A stretch of 62,880 nucleotides of DNA, filler included, from Candidatus Fermentibacterota bacterium (lineage in GTDB: Bacteria > JAFGKV01), in the NCBI GenBank assembly GCA_016928395.1. It is 7 parts of 7 records of this genome, joined end to end, with 100 filler letters (N's around TTAATTAATTAA, not from the genome) between each part and the next. Parts side by side here need not be neighbours in the genome. Positions count along the whole stretch, not along the records: positions 38,137 to 41,401 come from JAFGKV010000089.1; 6 more parts are not named here. One strand, written 5' to 3'. The position numbers were made by a program, and so were the translations under genes. Position 1 is the first letter of the stretch; the number at the start of each line of letters is the position of its first letter. This document shows, in pieces, positions 22,694-41,401 of the stretch. The notes beneath the pieces are model-generated. The model was not told the DNA's origin, did not search any database, and saw nothing but the letters and a program-made list of their open reading frames with translations.

Positions 22694-22905
22694 GTAGGAG
22701 CGCCGTCAGGCGCGAAGGGTTTGGGTTCGCGGTTGACACCGCTCCTACCATCGGGAATGTGGTGCACGGACAATGTACGTTCGCAGTTGACACCGCTCCT
22801 ACCCTGGGGAATGTGGTGCACGGACAATGTACGTTCGCGGTTGACACCGCTCCTACCCTGAGGAATGTGGTGCACCGACGCTGTAGGAGCGGCGTAAGCC
22901 GCGAA
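22694..22905. repeat. BIME-like REP array upstream of the RAYT
   Basis: REPs at 22694(+), 22726, 22780 and 22834 (all -, 54-bp period) and 22883(+), with near-identical linkers. Confidence 0.88.
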
Positions 22906-22946: not shown

Positions 22947-23480
22947 ATGATGCAACACACTCCTGCTCCTGCAGACAAGCCCTGGGTCGGGCGGGAAACC
23001 CCTGGGCTCCTTGCCCTCCGCAGAGGCCGGTTCTCGGAGCCGAACAGGGCATACTTCTTGACGACGGTCGTGCACGAGAAGCGGCCGCTTCTTGCGGGCC
23101 GTGTCGGCGAGCGGGTCGCTGAGAGCCTTGTCAGGTGGCAGGAGGTGGGCGGAATGCCCTTGTTGGCGTTCGTGATCATGCCGGACCATGCCCACATCCT
23201 GGGTGTGCTGAGGGATGGTAGTGACCTGGGGCGTGCGTTCGGTCGGTGGAAGGCGGGGGCGGCGAAGGAAGCGAATGAAGAACTGCGAAGGACGGGTCGG
23301 TTCTGGCAATCGGGGTTCCACGATCACGCGGTGAGGAGGAGCGAGGATCTGCGGGAGATCGCTTCGTATATTGAGGGTAACCCGGTGCGCAAGGGGTTGG
23401 TTTCCAGGGCCGAGACGTTCGAGTTGAGCAGTGCGAGCGAGCGTTTCCGCGACCGGGTTCTGGGATGGGCGCTGATCTGA
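22947..23480 (+). mobile_element. REP-associated tyrosine transposase (RAYT, Y1/HUH)
   Basis: LRRGRFSE..YFLTT, MPDHAH (HUH), FWQSGFHDHAVR and YIEGNP (catalytic Tyr); flanked by REPs on both sides. Confidence 0.92.
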
Positions 23481-23694: not shown

Positions 23695-25488
23695 ATGCTA
23701 TTCTATCGTCCTGGCCTAATCATCGTTGACCGTTTCGAGCTCCGGCAGGAGCTGGGCGCCGGCGGCATGGGGATCGTGTTCGGGGCGATGGACCGGGTCC
23801 TCGACGAAGACGTGGCCCTCAAGTTCCTGCCACCGGCCATGGCGCGGGATCAGGATGCCATCGAGCAGTTCACGAAGGAAGTGAAGCGGGCGCGCAAGGT
23901 TCCTGGGGAGTACGTCCTGCGGGTCCACGACATCTGGAACGACGGCGAGGGCGGCTGGTTTGTCAGCATGGAGTGGGCCAAGGGGGGAGATCTGACGGCG
24001 TACCGGCGGCGGTACGGAACGCTGAGTTGGGATCAGGCGAAGACGCTCCTGCTGCCGATTCTCCAAGGGCTTCAGGCAGTGCACAAGGCGGGGATCGTGC
24101 ATCGGGACATCAAGCCGGCGAACATCCTGTTCCGGGAAGATGGGACGCCGGTGGTGGCGGACTTTGGGATCTCGAAGTCGATTCAGGCTTCGATGAGCCG
24201 GATCTCACAGGACGCGACGATCAGCGGCACCCCGGCATACATGGCGCCAGAGGCGATTCGGGGCGGGAGCGAGATCGGGTTTCACACGGATCTCTATGCG
24301 ATCGGCTGCATGGCGTATGAACTGGTGACGGGCCACACGCCGTTCGTGGGCGATCCGATGTCGGTGATGTACAATCAGACACAGAGTGACCCGTCGTTCA
24401 GTGGCATGCCGCCTGAGGCGATTCGGTGGATCGGTGCGTGCATGATGAAGGATCCGGCGCGGCGAGTGCGGAACGCCGAGGAGCTGATCCGGGGTCTAGA
24501 GGATCCGAGCCGGTTGCCGGCGTACGTGCCGGTGGTCCCCATTCAGCAGTACGTGCCTTCGGTGCAACCGGATCCGGTGCCGAGGGCGCCGGCTGGCCCT
24601 CCCGCGCAACGCGCTCCCGTATCCTCTTTGCCGGCTGTGGAGCGAACGCACAAGGTCCCGGCTGTGTCTCCAAGGGTGTCGTCTCCGGCTGCACCGGTGC
24701 TCCCCAGTGTATCCTTCATGCCCTCGGAGGCGCGACAACAGGGAGATGCGAAGCCGAAGGTGCGCCGCAAATCCGCCAACTACCTGCCGTTCGTGCTCGT
24801 CGGTGCCCTCGCGGCGCTCCTGGTAATCATCCTGATTGTGATTCTCCAAGGCAGAGGAACGCCGCACCAACGGGTCGCCAGAGCACCGGTTGGAGTTCAG
24901 TATCCACCACCAGACGGTGGCCAACAGCCCGATGCGAATGAGACGCCGGATCGTCCACCCTCCCCGCCTCCTCCGGAATCCGATCCGGGGGACTCTCGTA
25001 TCGAGCTCATTGCCCGCCTGGAAGAGGAAGCACGCGAGCACTTCGCTGCCAGAAGGTACACCAGCCCAGCAGGGCGGAACACCTGGGAGACGTGCCGGCG
25101 CATCCTCGCGGAGCAGCCGGACAACTCGCTCTGTCAGATGCTCCAGGGACAGATGCAGAACTGGTACGTCAAGGACATCGGGAAGAAGCTGGTAGATGGC
25201 GACTGTGAGGGCGCCGAGGCATGTGCTCGGGCGCTTCGACAGCTTGGATGGGCCAGTGACTACTCGGCCCGAATCGCCGACTGCCGGGCGCGTAGGGGGC
25301 CACCTCCCCCCCCACCTCCCCCAGCAACCATTGGGCTCTGTCCATTCTGCGGAGAGCGGACCGAGAAAGGGAATCGATGCCAGATGTGCGGGAAGAGCCT
25401 TGCAGGTCGCGGTGTAGTCTGCCCCTCCTGCCAGAAGTGGGTGCCGGCGGGCAATCGATGCACGGAGTGTGGCAAGGAGCTTCCGTGA
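23695..25488 (+). CDS. Hanks-type Ser/Thr protein kinase with a TM helix and C-terminal double zinc ribbon
   Basis: GAGGMG, VALK, HRDIKPAN, DFG, GTPAYMAPE; four CxxC pairs at the C-terminus. Confidence 0.93.
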   Translation: MLFYRPGLIIVDRFELRQELGAGGMGIVFGAMDRVLDEDVALKFLPPAMARDQDAIEQFTKEVKRARKVPGEYVLRVHDIWNDGEGGWFVSMEWAKGGDLTAYRRRYGTLSWDQAKTLLLPILQGLQAVHKAGIVHRDIKPANILFREDGTPVVADFGISKSIQASMSRISQDATISGTPAYMAPEAIRGGSEIGFHTDLYAIGCMAYELVTGHTPFVGDPMSVMYNQTQSDPSFSGMPPEAIRWIGACMMKDPARRVRNAEELIRGLEDPSRLPAYVPVVPIQQYVPSVQPDPVPRAPAGPPAQRAPVSSLPAVERTHKVPAVSPRVSSPAAPVLPSVSFMPSEARQQGDAKPKVRRKSANYLPFVLVGALAALLVIILIVILQGRGTPHQRVARAPVGVQYPPPDGGQQPDANETPDRPPSPPPPESDPGDSRIELIARLEEEAREHFAARRYTSPAGRNTWETCRRILAEQPDNSLCQMLQGQMQNWYVKDIGKKLVDGDCEGAEACARALRQLGWASDYSARIADCRARRGPPPPPPPPATIGLCPFCGERTEKGNRCQMCGKSLAGRGVVCPSCQKWVPAGNRCTECGKELP

Positions 25489-38136: not shown

Positions 38137-39569
38137 GCATACACAATGACCTCGTCACCGTTATAGGGATGGTTCTGCACGAAATCCACGCTGCCGCTGC
38201 CGAGAATCTTGTAGGAGCCCCGGCCGCAGGCTGCCCAGTTCCCGCTGGACACGTCGTGGAAGATCCCTCCCTGGAGATCCCCCCGTGCGGTGATTCCCGT
38301 TCCGTTTGATCCGGAGCTGGCCTCGGCCCATACGGCAATCCCGTCGTCGGCATTGGAATATCCGTACACGCCGATGCTGCTTCCTGTCGTGGCAAGCCCC
38401 TCGCCGACCACGCCGAACCCCGCCGGCGAGTTGGTTCTCCCCGCGACGCCCACCCCCGCGCCGGAACTTGTTTCGTGTATTCCCCTAAGGCCGATCCCAT
38501 CGGGCGATACGCTGCGACCATAGACGCCGTAGGTGTCTCCGCTGGCGGCCGAAGCAGATCCATACACGCCGACCCCGACGGTGGAAGTCGTCACACCCTG
38601 TACGGCGTGCGCGAATGTGGAACGATCTGCGACGCCGTATACGCCGTAGCTCGGCGCGCTGCCGTACACGCCCATCCCAAGGTGTGAATCACTCTGTCCA
38701 ATGACTCCGTATGTTTCGCTGGTCGTCGCGTATGAGCGGCCGTACACGCCCCGTGAGGAAGCAGTCGTGGAGTAGCTTCGGCCATACACCCCGTAGGTTA
38801 CCCCGGTGGTTGCGGTCGCCACGCCGCGAACGCCGCTTCCTGAGGTGGAAGCGGTCTCGAAGTAGCCTCCACAGGTGACCCCGGTCGATGCCCATGCCCA
38901 ACCGGAAACAGCCATGCCGGCGATTGATGCTGTTTCACCGTAGACGCCGTACGCGTCGCCCGTTGCCGCGGAGTTGTAGCCAATGACGGCTCGACCATTG
39001 GCGGAGTATGCCCTTCCGTAGACGCCGCGCGTCAACCCTGACGTCGCTTCGGCGATGCCCTGAACGGCATAGCCGCCGGTGGAATTGGTGCGCACGTAAA
39101 TTCCGTCGGCAACACCCGAGGTCTCCTGGTTGCGTATGTTCAAGACTCCCCCATACATGGCCTCTTCGATCTCCGTGCCCGGGACCAGCCCGCTGGCCAT
39201 GTAGGCGTAACCGACGCTGGACAAGCGCTGGCGCGGGGTCTGCACGACCCCGTCGAAAGTGACCTGGAGCCAAAGGTCCTCATCGAAATGGAGGATAATG
39301 AGTGGCTGCGGGCTTTCCCCAAGGAGCACGCTGAATACCCCACCGGTCACTTGTACGGAGACGGTGCCGCTCTCCCACCTCTGATCACCGGCTGCGGCGG
39401 CATTGAAGAGGCGAAACTGCATGTCGTAGGAACCATCAGCGACGGGGTTTCCCCCGCTGTCGGTTACCTTTCCCTGATAGCTGATTATCCGAGGGATCTC
39501 GGCATTGATGCTGCCCGACAGGGCAACCAGGATGAGAAGCAGGAGCCCGAAGCGCGATACGGAAACCAT
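38137..39569 (-). CDS. Secreted GVYG-repeat (beta-helix / fibre-like) protein, 3' partial
   Basis: Signal peptide, IPRIISYQG..G.FSVLLG..PRQRL.SV.YA head domain, many GVYG repeats, FVQNHP...IVY. Confidence 0.75.
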
Positions 39570-40039
39570 AGGAACCTCCTTGGTGTGCAGATCAAACCAT
39601 TCCATGACTCCAGACGGACCGGGCCCGTTGGCCCGTCTCACTGAGAATGATGCAGGGGCCCGCTCAGATTCCGCTCAGACTTTTGGTTGCTCTATGTCGG
39701 CTGCAGCAATGACCGGCCTCACCTCAGATCTGCAGTGATAACTCAGAGATCCCCGCATCGCTGGCCAGGGCAGGGGTGCGAGGAGGCTGAATCCTTTGCC
39801 CTGTAACGAAATGGTCCGACAGGGCAGGGGCGAGGAAGTCAGAGCACAACCGAGCATGCCACCTCAGAGATCCGGGATAGTGCGCTGATTGTCGGGCGAG
39901 ATCCCACCCTGAGTTTTCGATGGGCATGGCACCTTGACCGGCAATTCCCGCTCGGATCCGACCGGTGTGCACGGGCACGTCGAAGATCACGCTCGCCTCA
40001 TCCCGGCACGCAGCCGCCCGTTCCTGAGCTCGCTGCGGG

Positions 40040-40068
40040 TTGACTTGCGCCTCAATGCATCGTAGGAT
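40040..40068 (+). promoter_or_regulatory. sigma70-type promoter
   Basis: TTGACT-N17-TAGGAT upstream of the ORF starting at 40161. Confidence 0.6.
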
Positions 40069-40160
40069 TCTGTGAGCTTATGACCGCCGCGCCCAGCGCG
40101 AGCAGGTCGATGACGGATCACCGACAGCAGCATAACTGCAGCATACAGGGGGCCACACGC

Positions 40161-41401
40161 ATGCCACGCACGGCCCGACATCATTCGCCCGGGGCGATGT
40201 ACCACGTGACCCCGCGCGGCGATATCGATCCTCTGTGTGTCGGTGATGCGGAGCGATCATACTTCTACGACCTGTTGGCATACGGCGTGGGGCAGTTTGG
40301 CCATCAGATTCATGCGTTCTGCCTGCTCCCCGACCAAGTCCACCTGGCAATACGGGTTGCGGATGCCCCCCTCTCTCGGATCATCCACAGCCTTGCCTCT
40401 CGCTATACCCAATGGGTGAACCGTCATCGGGGCAGGCGTGGCAAGCTGTTTTGGGGAAGGTATGAGGCTGAACTGCTCCCGGGGCGGGCCGGGCTGATCA
40501 CGGCAGTACGCGAGATCCACCGGCTGCCAGTGGTTGGGGGGCAGGTATGCGAACCGGGAGCCTACGAGTGGAGCAGCCACCGCTACTATCGCGGGGAGGG
40601 GGCGCTCCCATGGTTGACCACCGAGGCGGTCCTTGGTCACTTCTCAGAAAACGAAGAAGAGGCTCGGCGAGCGTTCGATGCGTTCGTGAGGTCGGAACGA
40701 GCTGGTGGTTGTGGCACCCAGGACGGCGAAGCGCTGAGTGATGGCCGAGAAGGAGTGGTTTCCCGCACCGACTCCTTGAGTGATATCATCGGAGCGGTCT
40801 GCGCAGAATACGGTATGACCGAGCCTGAGCTGCTGGCGTCGGGAAAGCAACGACATGCGGTGGAAGCCCGGGCCATGGTGGTCTTGCTGGCTCGGGAGTG
40901 CACACGGAGTGCCATCGCTGAGGCAGCTTCACGGCTTGGGCGAGATCCCTCGAGTCTCGGGAAGGCGATGGGACGACTTGTGGAACGAACCAAGATGCCG
41001 GGCATCGCCGCGGAGAGGCTCGCGCGTGTCCGGCAATTGCTGCGGTCGAAGGCTGGGCCATCCCGCCCAAGAACGTTACGCAGGGTTCTCTCGGAGCGCG
41101 GATTTCTTCCCTGGGAGGAGGCACTGGCCCTCCTTGGCTCGGTGATAGACCAGGTGCTCGACGGGGAGGGCGCCCGGCGGCCGTCGGCGATCGCGCCGGA
41201 GCAGATAGTGCTCAGCGATGATGGTGGCGTGCAGGTCGAGCGCGAAGGTACTGAGAGCCAGAGAACCCAGTCATACCGAAGTCCGGAAGTCCGTGCAGGA
41301 CAACAGCCGTCTTCCAGGTCCCTGGTGTGGTCGCTTGGTGCGCTCCTGTGCGAGATGCTCTCGGGGCAGGCCCCGACGGCGGAGGACGCCCAGTCCGGTC
41401 C
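40161..41401 (+). CDS. Degenerate RAYT/Y1 domain plus DnaA-C-like HTH plus pseudokinase C-lobe, 3' partial
   Basis: MPRTAR..YHVT.RG, AFCLLPDQVHL, G.LF.GRY and YEWSS; an HTH; then YRSPE and VWSLG.LL.EMLSG..P. Confidence 0.75.

Follow-up and report, generated by a model that had tools for sequence, protein, structure and literature searches.

A STAND ATPase gene of a Candidatus Fermentibacterota genome fused to a degenerate transposase, a DnaA-type helix-turn-helix and a kinase remnant

The locus described here raises the question of what is encoded by a gene in which a transposase domain, a helix-turn-helix (HTH) and a piece of a protein kinase are read in one frame, both enzymes having lost their catalytic residues. 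The gene lies at positions 40161-41401 (+ strand) of a stretch of 62,880 bases, hereafter the window, of a Candidatus Fermentibacterota bacterium (assembly GCA_016928395.1). The window is a string of contigs of a metagenome-assembled genome (MAG), referred to as G000, which comprises 343 contigs and 4.79 Mb and is 94% complete. The gene is harbored by contig C119 (3,265 bp, window 38137-41401), both genes of which run off the contig ends, position 41401 being the contig end inside the fused gene. The analysis of the gene, of its continuation on a second contig and of its relatives suggests that it probably encodes an AfsR/MalT-like STAND switch with a transposase-derived DNA-binding output, in which a dead Y1 domain, an HTH similar to domain IV of DnaA, a dead kinase C-lobe, an NB-ARC ATPase and TPR repeats follow one another.

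Architecture and continuity of the fused gene

The features of the gene are listed below in window coordinates; P0153 is a paralogue from the same genome, and P0161 a homologue from a metagenome contig.

40040..40068, + strand: sigma-70-like promoter match, TTGACT-N17-TAGGAT (9 of 12 positions match).
40161..41401, + strand: opening 413 codons of the fused gene, counted from Met28 of the longest frame and running off the contig end, with GGGGG 8 nt upstream.
40161..40700, + strand: Y1/HUH domain of the TnpA_REP or RAYT (REP-associated tyrosine transposase) kind, catalytically degenerate (Pfam, fold, conserved columns).
40332..40343, + strand: remnant of the HUH motif, D-Q-V-H for the N-H-x-H of the family (alignment of 152 sequences).
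40512..40529, + strand: remnant of the Tyr motif, E-I-H-R-L-P for the Y-I-H-L-N-P of the family (same alignment).
40773..41051, + strand: DnaA-domain-IV-like HTH (Pfam Bac_DnaA_C, AlphaFold2, Foldseek).
41055..41401, + strand: beginning of a kinase C-lobe, catalytically dead and lacking the N-lobe, whose remainder is on contig C277 (partial Pkinase match, collinearity with P0153 and P0161).
41178..41204, + strand: RPSAIAPEQ in place of the catalytic loop HRDxKPxN (alignment to real kinases).
41274..41339, + strand: retained C-lobe landmarks YRSPE (41274-41288) and WSLG (41328-41339) (alignment to real kinases).
41315..41401, + strand: 87 nt shared with the end of C277 (reverse complement), an exact overlap that joins the gene to its remaining 947 codons.

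The + frame is open from the ATG at 40080 to the contig end. Since homologues begin at query residue 28 or 29, the ATG at 40161 (Met28) is the likely start, which leaves 413 codons; the other two + frames contain 11 and 9 stops in 413 and 412 codons, respectively. A preliminary description of the locus, made from the sequence alone, had placed a good sigma70 promoter upstream of the gene; the hexamers are where it put them, but one promoter-like site was found against 0.4 expected by chance, and this is weak evidence.

The first domain was matched by Pfam Y1_Tnp (residues 62-127, E 5.9e-5, 23.6 bits with a cut-off of 23) and, below its cut-off of 80, by the NCBIfam model of the REP-associated tyrosine transposase, NF047646 (residues 31-165, E 3.2e-7, 30.4 bits). 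It was aligned with its RAYT+HTH relatives in a set of 152 sequences (the window, 150 database representatives and one sister-genome protein), 131 of which keep both H-x-H and the Tyr. The first His of HUH is conserved in 137 of them and is Q in the window, and the catalytic Tyr (140/152) and the Asn (135/152) are replaced by E and L. Of the 42 columns with at least 80% conservation, the window Y1 domain retains 31, as against a family median of 38; only 14 of the other 151 Y1+HTH sequences keep 31 or fewer, and about half of the losses of the window domain fall at the two catalytic motifs. In an AlphaFold2 model of 40161-41400, built with 50 aligned relatives and compared with the PDB by Foldseek, the Y1 domain has a pLDDT of about 95, and the top match is 4er8_A, i.e., TnpA_REP bound to a REP hairpin (E 1.3e-5, TMt 0.75), the IS200/IS608 transposases ranking after it. 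The fold of TnpA_REP/RAYT proteins is therefore present in the window protein, and their HUH motif and catalytic Tyr (Y-x-x-x-N-P) are absent from it.

The HTH is above the cut-off of Pfam Bac_DnaA_C (residues 235-293, E 8.5e-8, 32.6 bits versus 31.5), was modelled with a pLDDT of about 90, and superimposes on the DNA-binding domain of DnaA (3pvp_B, TMt 0.90) with a root-mean-square deviation (rmsd) of 1.4 Å. Only about two residues separate its end from the start of the kinase-like part. The latter is matched by Pfam Pkinase over residues 391-436, corresponding to profile positions 155-200 of 263 only (E 2.7e-5, 24.2 bits, below the cut-off of 31.7); V-E-R-E-G occupies the position of DFG, and both YRSPE and WSLGALLCEMLSG are present. 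The N-lobe is missing here as it is in two relatives, the Pkinase profile being covered from 129 to 252 in P0161 and from 84 to 253 in P0157. The preliminary description had read from the sequence an uninterrupted frame of at least 413 codons, the degenerate D-Q-V-H and EIHRLP, a DnaA-C-like HTH and a kinase C-lobe devoid of N-lobe and DFG, with RPSAIAPEQ for HRDxKPxN and with YxSPE and the WSLG region retained. All of these were recovered, and so was the conclusion that both catalytic centres had been lost while the frame was kept.

The kinase part of the window itself, cut by the contig end and with one aligned relative, is poorly modelled (pLDDT about 40-60), and the complete HTH and C-lobe of P0161 were modelled instead. 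With 39 aligned sequences the mean pLDDT was 84.7, exceeding 90 over most of the C-lobe, and Foldseek returned 471 PDB matches at E<=0.001, the top-ranked of which, as far as shown, are all kinases or pseudokinases, including RIPK1, FAK, PknA/B/E and MLKL. Of the 227 PDB sequences that a phmmer search with the same domain retrieved at E<=0.001, the best 60 are kinases without exception, aligned from the catalytic-loop region onwards. The C-lobe fold (APE, helices F to I) is thus recognisable in the model of the complete P0161 domain and not in the split copy of the window; the kinase fold proposed earlier for the C-terminal part is in this way borne out by the predicted structure of a relative. 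The 10 aligned proteins of the C-lobe-only subfamily are all devoid of an N-lobe, of the HRD Asp, of the Lys of the catalytic loop and of an intact DFG; Glu replaces the HRD Asp in two of them, and P0161 reads D-I-P-G at the DFG position. The same 10 proteins keep SPE, W-x-x-G-x-L-L-x-E and the helix F-I motifs. Judging from this alignment, proteins of one subfamily of NB-ARC+TPR STAND ATPases normally begin with such a kinase remnant lacking the N-lobe.

A search of the genome of the window with the end of the frame disclosed where the gene continues. The last 28 residues of the C119 frame recur with 100% identity at the end of contig C277, and the last 87 nt of C119 are the first 87 nt of the reverse-complemented C277. 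Such an exact suffix-prefix overlap is the signature of two neighbours in the assembly graph. The frame is kept across it and runs for 947 more codons (protein P0002), which encode the rest of the kinase C-lobe, an NB-ARC/AAA_16 P-loop ATPase and TPR repeats. The Pkinase profile is split between the two contigs (positions 155-200 on C119 and 180-261 on C277), and the offsets to P0161 agree on both sides of the join. The gene has about 1,330 codons from Met28 and was split by the assembler between C119 and C277, the window holding its N-terminal third. The preliminary description had proposed extending the contig; the engine of the protein lies in this extension, outside the contig of the window. 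The passage from HTH to kinase at about 41050, whose continuity the description had wished to see checked, is bridged by a 6,028-nt contig that a second assembler produced from the public run X1 (97% of sampled words) and that spans 38447-41401 at an even depth of 13.5. It differs from the window by two substitutions, one intergenic and the other, at 40850, synonymous by reading of the frame, and by computed count it continues past 41401.

The NB-ARC and AAA_16 matches of P0002 (E 2.3e-8 and 4e-7), together with GPGGIGKS and LLVLDD, belong to the fused gene insofar as the join of C119 to C277 holds. Its TPR part is matched by TPR_12 in six stretches (E 2.7e-32) and by TPR_MalT (E 2e-13). Hence P0002 shows what is expected of a STAND protein, i.e., a P-loop of the NB-ARC/NACHT type with Walker A and B and C-terminal TPR repeats. 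The NB-ARC/TPR part is also matched by the NCBIfam AfsR model (P0002, E 3.6e-20; P0153, E 4e-24), far below its equivalog cut-off (71.6 versus 1430 bits), and no PF03704, PF00486 or PF00196 was found by Pfam in P0001/P0002, so that the SARP or LuxR domain of AfsR and MalT proper is absent. In STAND proteins such as MalT and AfsR, sensor repeats are combined with a nucleotide switch that drives oligomerisation and with an output domain.

P0153 (contig C164, 1,034 residues) starts directly at the kinase C-lobe, with no HTH, and is collinear with window residues 326-432 (37% identity) and with P0002 (33% over 865 positions, 369 bits). Of 8,000 candidates scored in a search with P0153, 2,849 were relatives at E<=0.001. 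The best 120, which were listed, carry as N-terminal heads BTAD/SARP, HTH_3/HTH_31, GerE/LuxR, a full Ser/Thr kinase, GGDEF or adenylate cyclase. By domain content, a DNA-binding head is the commonest output among these listed relatives, and the DnaA-type HTH fills that position in the window protein.

Exactly one of the 120 has PF08299, namely P0161, and none has PF01797. P0161 (1142 residues) consists of a Bac_DnaA_C HTH (E 1.1e-9) followed by Pkinase (129-252, 36.9 bits, above cut-off), NB-ARC and TPR. Its residues 4-215 align in one piece with window residues 229-432 across the HTH/kinase junction (32% identity, E 2e-27), and its residues 196-1142 align with P0002 at 44% identity over 966 positions (754 bits). 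From these alignments, P0161 is clearly closer to P0002 than is P0153, the paralogue from the same genome (33%, 369 bits). It comes from L105, a 13-kb metagenome contig (12.5-kb locus) whose GC content is 48% versus 63% for C119. The homologue with the same fusion called for by the preliminary description therefore exists, and the alignment across the junction indicates that the fusion is conserved and is not an assembly chimera. The order of HTH, N-lobe-less pseudokinase, NB-ARC and TPR is the same in the two proteins, and both genes have a surface-protein gene next door. They differ in that P0161 has no Y1 domain (nor does the L105 DNA contain any Y1 remnant upstream of it), its neighbour is convergent rather than divergent, and it has upstream repeats of its own (six copies of GATAGGNGA). 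The lack of Y1 in P0161 implies that this domain is dispensable for the protein family; since P0161 is the closest relative, the HTH, and not the hairpin-binding RAYT fold, is the conserved recruited part.

The protein can be compared with two known types of STAND proteins. As in AfsR/MalT-type regulators, an NB-ARC P-loop precedes TPR repeats, and as in the SARP-STAND relatives a DNA-binding domain stands at the N-terminus; unlike AfsR and MalT, the window protein has no BTAD/SARP or LuxR domain, its HTH is of the DnaA-domain-IV type and of transposase origin, and a dead kinase C-lobe lies between HTH and ATPase. Proteins joining a Ser/Thr kinase to STAND and TPR, among which are also the PknK-like proteins, share with it the NB-ARC+TPR body and a kinase-derived domain in the same position. 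One of them is encoded by the genome of the window on contig C186 (locus L108, 1928-5167, - strand), where a complete Ser/Thr kinase (G-loop, VAIK, HRDVKPAN, DFG), apparently active from its motifs, is fused to the same body; this gene, too, adjoins a surface-protein paralogue. In C186 and in the Chloroflexota locus L025 the kinase is full, with G-loop, VAIK, HRD and DFG, whereas the window gene and nine aligned relatives start at Pkinase profile position ~84-155, without the catalytic residues. C186, C164 and the window gene form a natural series (full kinase, C-lobe only, C-lobe with HTH), and the presence of the full-kinase paralogue in the same genome allows one to ask about the function of a C-lobe on its own. 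In addition, the locus defines a STAND subfamily having half a kinase, the C-lobe only, as its N-terminal domain.

Origin of the DNA-binding head

A full HMMER search of 1.84 billion representatives, which is blind to the weaker, kinase-side relatives, gave 14,295 matches at E<=0.001, the best 150 of which were inspected. All 150 are Y1+DnaA_C proteins with 29-47% identity, most of them of about 310 residues; three are longer, with extra HTH repeats, and in none of the 150 does the best stretch pass query residue 339. Window residues 28 to ~330 thus match a free-standing Y1+Bac_DnaA_C family end to end. The three long proteins, P0003 (1680 residues), P0004 (1052) and P0007 (529), combine a Y1 domain whose HUH and Tyr are intact with a series of many DnaA_C-like HTH repeats in tandem behind it (as many as 12 matched stretches in P0003), an architecture that is unusual among database representatives.

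The Y1+Bac_DnaA_C family corresponds to the TnpA_REP subclass 2.1.2, overlapping the TIRYT group, as described by Quentin et al. 2018 (PMC6006769). The window protein has the architecture given there for the subclass, a Bac_DnaA_C-like HTH C-terminal to Y1, with a Y1 fold and a DnaA-domain-IV-like HTH like its members. It differs from them in the replacement of the first His of HUH, of the Tyr and of the Asn, and in that the family gene stands alone with ~310 codons, while the window gene is fused in frame to about 1,000 more residues, those of a STAND body, and is not a free-standing gene with terminal inverted repeats. A repeat scan of the contig, in which the published consensus of the terminal inverted repeats was not searched as a pattern, revealed no inverted-repeat pair flanking the Y1+HTH part and no convincing terminal inverted repeats.

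Unfused relatives are present in the sister genomes. The one on G002:C187 (321 residues, 41% identity) has intact H-I-H and Y-I-H-L-N-P; that on G001:C492 is a partial copy in two frames, with R-Y-I-H-L-N-P intact, and unrelated genes come after both. At the latter, same-genus locus (L022, 2972-3567, - strand) the frame is split between the Y1 and the HTH parts, by either a frameshift or an assembly error.

The DNA-binding head probably stems from a TIRYT-like transposase gene of TnpA_REP subclass 2.1.2, in which Y1 and Bac_DnaA_C are natively joined. In the simplest history, the whole transposase gene would have become joined to a C-lobe-STAND gene at the 5' end of the latter; its nuclease centre would then have decayed in the lineage of the window (H to Q, Y to E, N to L), and the Y1 domain would have been deleted in the lineage of P0161. 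Alternatively, the ancestor might have had the HTH only, a transposase gene having recombined into it later. Compared by eye over ~90 residues, the window HTH shares about 35% identity with P0161 and as much with the unfused G002 protein, too little signal for dating the fusion.

Whereas eukaryotes offer many clear examples of transposases domesticated through gene fusion, such examples are rare in bacteria. The locus appears to show two stages of one such domestication, with Y1+HTH fused and the nuclease centre dead in the window, and with Y1 gone in P0161; the domesticated transposase of the preliminary description was right in spirit.

Further fused forms were sought in several ways. A word-index protein search, too insensitive here, gave no match at E<=0.001 with the whole 440-residue protein and, with residues 225-440 against longer proteins, only P0002 of the same genome. 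Scanning the GTDB species genomes with the HTH+pseudokinase alignment gave 107 relatives and no further fused form, the 80 retained all appearing to be ordinary kinases (one was inspected), and a scan of metagenomes confirmed at least three relatives, one of which is the P0161 locus. L025, in which the match seemed to reach the HTH, was rejected as a fused form, being actually BTAD, full kinase and STAND. Among 41 related genomes, that of the window included, the fused form was found in the latter only, which is also the only one of the three genomes examined of its phylum in which it was detected. It is a new arrangement of known domains with two known members, and no description of it was found in the literature at the level of titles and abstract openings.

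The surface-protein neighbour and the proposed mode of action

The preliminary description had tentatively linked the gene to its divergent neighbour, a surface-protein gene, and this link is supported, the same kind of pairing recurring elsewhere. The features concerned are as follows.

38137..39569, - strand: 5' portion of a gene for a secreted surface protein with 'GVYG' repeats, truncated at the contig start and divergent from the fused gene (open reading frame).
39766..39830, no strand: three copies of CAGGGCARRGG (+, -, +), spaced by 27 nt, between the two divergent genes; a candidate for an operator or a hairpin.
Pairing at the window: STAND and surface-protein genes divergent.
Pairing at C164: divergent; pseudokinase, no HTH.
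Pairing at C186: convergent; complete kinase.
Pairing at G001:C85: divergent; counterpart of C164, no HTH.
Pairing at L105: convergent; P0161.

The surface protein has a signal peptide and a conserved N-terminal domain of ~150 residues followed by GVYG-type repeats, and no Pfam family matched it. Its N-terminal 170 residues have 34 matches in G000 (4.8 Mb); several copies are clustered, e.g., three on C193. A kinase-like or pseudokinase STAND gene adjoins a surface-protein paralogue or homologue at five loci, of which G001:C85, as the counterpart of C164, is not an independent case; in G000, each of the three kinase-like STAND genes inspected has a surface-protein gene beside it. The recurrent pairing supports a putative functional link between the two kinds of genes and provides a lead on the regulation of a large unannotated surface-protein family.

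As for possible binding sites, the window contains three copies of CAGGGCARRGG where 0.28 are expected (0 of 100 shuffles reach three), and the 4.79-Mb genome 46, the cluster of three being found only at 39766-39830; folded as DNA, this region gives -22.4 kcal/mol (z -2.65). At the other HTH-bearing locus, the 9-mer GATAGGNGA has six same-strand copies, all in L105 5292-5752 upstream of P0161 and nowhere else in the 12.5-kb locus, versus 0.53 expected, but they lie inside a duplicated block and are not independent. Both motifs are a lead only, as candidate binding sites. L105 5200-6000 comprises a 750-nt non-coding region with two blocks of adjoining 24-50 nt repeats, ~340-368 nt apart. The intergenic DNA of the window, C164 and G001:C85 shows no similarity outside the surface-protein gene.

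From the architecture and the neighbourhood we infer DNA binding, target genes, a signal and an ATP-driven oligomerisation for the protein. The TPR region would sense a ligand or a protein, upon which the NB-ARC module would exchange nucleotide and oligomerise; oligomerisation would cluster the N-terminal HTH domains on repeated DNA sites and thereby switch transcription. The adjacent divergent surface-protein gene, which the protein probably regulates, would be the likely target, perhaps together with the promoter of the gene itself. The description that fits the protein best is that of a STAND ATPase whose DNA-binding head derives from a transposase and whose adaptor is half a kinase, and not that of a regulator in phospho-signalling. 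The interpretation given in the preliminary description is thus partly supported: its domains, the lost catalysis and the domestication hold, whereas it missed the STAND body, and the role in phospho-signalling is not supported, the kinase piece being a standard N-terminal domain of a STAND subfamily that is dead in 10 of 10 members. Of the hairpin- and DNA-binding regulator it had envisaged, the HTH is the part that was conserved, and not the hairpin-binding RAYT fold.

Several observations weigh against the regulation of surface-protein genes by such a STAND switch. The HTH-less genes at C164 and G001:C85 keep the pairing, so that DNA binding by the STAND protein is not needed for it. With 34 matches in the genome some adjacency could be due to chance, the rough expectation being ~2 x 34 / 4,300 per gene, where ~4,300 genes is a guess. 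The two HTH-bearing loci do not have the same candidate operator motif, and the HTH-bearing form has two known members only, the window gene and P0161, plus one near-identical copy. No RNA run contained the sequence. As regards the gene itself, the run with the 6,028-nt contig is probably the MAG's own source sample, which makes it a second assembly and not second data; the contig was read only to 41401, and the join of C119 to C277 is drawn from the overlap and the collinearity.

It is possible, though unlikely, that the Y1 domain is not a relic and keeps the single-stranded hairpin binding of TnpA_REP without the cutting, giving the STAND protein a target or a trigger, e.g., an intergenic REP-like hairpin. 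The domain is full length and confidently modelled, its losses are concentrated at the two catalytic motifs while 31 of 42 conserved columns are kept, its top structural match is TnpA_REP with a REP hairpin, and the unusual CAGGGCARRGG triple of the divergent intergenic region has hairpin potential. Nevertheless, the closest relative has no Y1 domain at all, that of the window is among the more degenerate of its family, and near subclass 2.1 genes no REP-like sequences were found, according to PMC6006769. In a bolder and improbable version of the same idea, the dead Y1 would have been retained for reading single-stranded DNA hairpins, e.g., the CAGGGCARRGG triple, without cutting them, and the STAND switch, aimed or triggered by DNA structure, would choose which member of the ~30-copy surface-protein family is expressed; if this were true, surface variation in an uncultured phylum would be under the control of a transposase-derived regulator.

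That the fusion is a neutral accident is rather improbable. In that case a TIRYT-type gene would have landed before, or recombined with, a STAND gene, and its transposase part would be decaying, so that only the pseudokinase-NB-ARC-TPR body matters. This would fit the loss of the catalytic residues, the finding of the fused form in one of three genomes of the phylum, the intact and unfused state of the nearest standalone relatives in sister genomes, and the existence of HTH-less paralogues. It fits badly with 413 stop-free codons where the other frames have 9-11 stops, and with an HTH that is above its Pfam cut-off and models on DnaA domain IV at an rmsd of 1.4 Å. P0161, at only 32-44% identity, still has the HTH/pseudokinase junction, which argues for long-term retention of at least the HTH.

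Bacterial NLR-like defence proteins have a layout of N-terminal module, NB-ARC and TPR. An antiphage STAND protein (Avs/NLR-like), whose TPR would sense a phage protein and whose N-terminal module would be the effector, has this layout in common with the window protein, but is very unlikely here. PADLOC gave no Avs/NLR model and only generic TPR and kinase-domain models (the latter being PD-T4-6, mad6 and MkoA on P0002 and P0153, each on the C-lobe only); the nuclease that would have to be the effector is dead, the heads found on the nearest family members are those of transcription factors (SARP, HTH_3, GerE), and the consistent partner is a cell-surface gene instead of defence-island genes. 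Lastly, an assembly chimera of transposase and kinase parts from different molecules, which a gene on a 3.3-kb MAG contig ending inside it might let one suspect, is close to refuted by the single, evenly covered contig of the second assembler and by the unbroken alignment of P0161, from another organism, across the same junction.

Other observations on the window and related sequences

Six joints, formed by runs of N around TTAATTAATTAA, separate the contigs of the window, as follows.

Window 15453, 18886, 27785, 38081, 41446 and 56768: N-run joints around TTAATTAATTAA.

Features touching these joints are cut or artificial.

Among further public runs, X3 contained no sequence matching the window gene, and X2, a hot-spring metagenome, gave two short fragments only (173 and 207 nt, 3-7 differences), which offer no basis for claims on habitat or expression. 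A 209-nt contig of X2 corresponds to 40142-40348, in the Y1 domain, with three differences over 207 nt; by reading of the frame, two are synonymous and one changes Pro into the family-consensus Leu. This near-match implies that close strains exist.

A classical RAYT is encoded elsewhere in the window, at 22947-23480 (177 residues), and is intact, with DHAH and YIEGNP as reported in the preliminary description. It lies directly downstream of a 54-nt tandem repeat (22725-22879, 2.9 copies, 94% matches), which may be its REP-like partner, and is followed by a full Ser/Thr kinase gene at 23695-25488.

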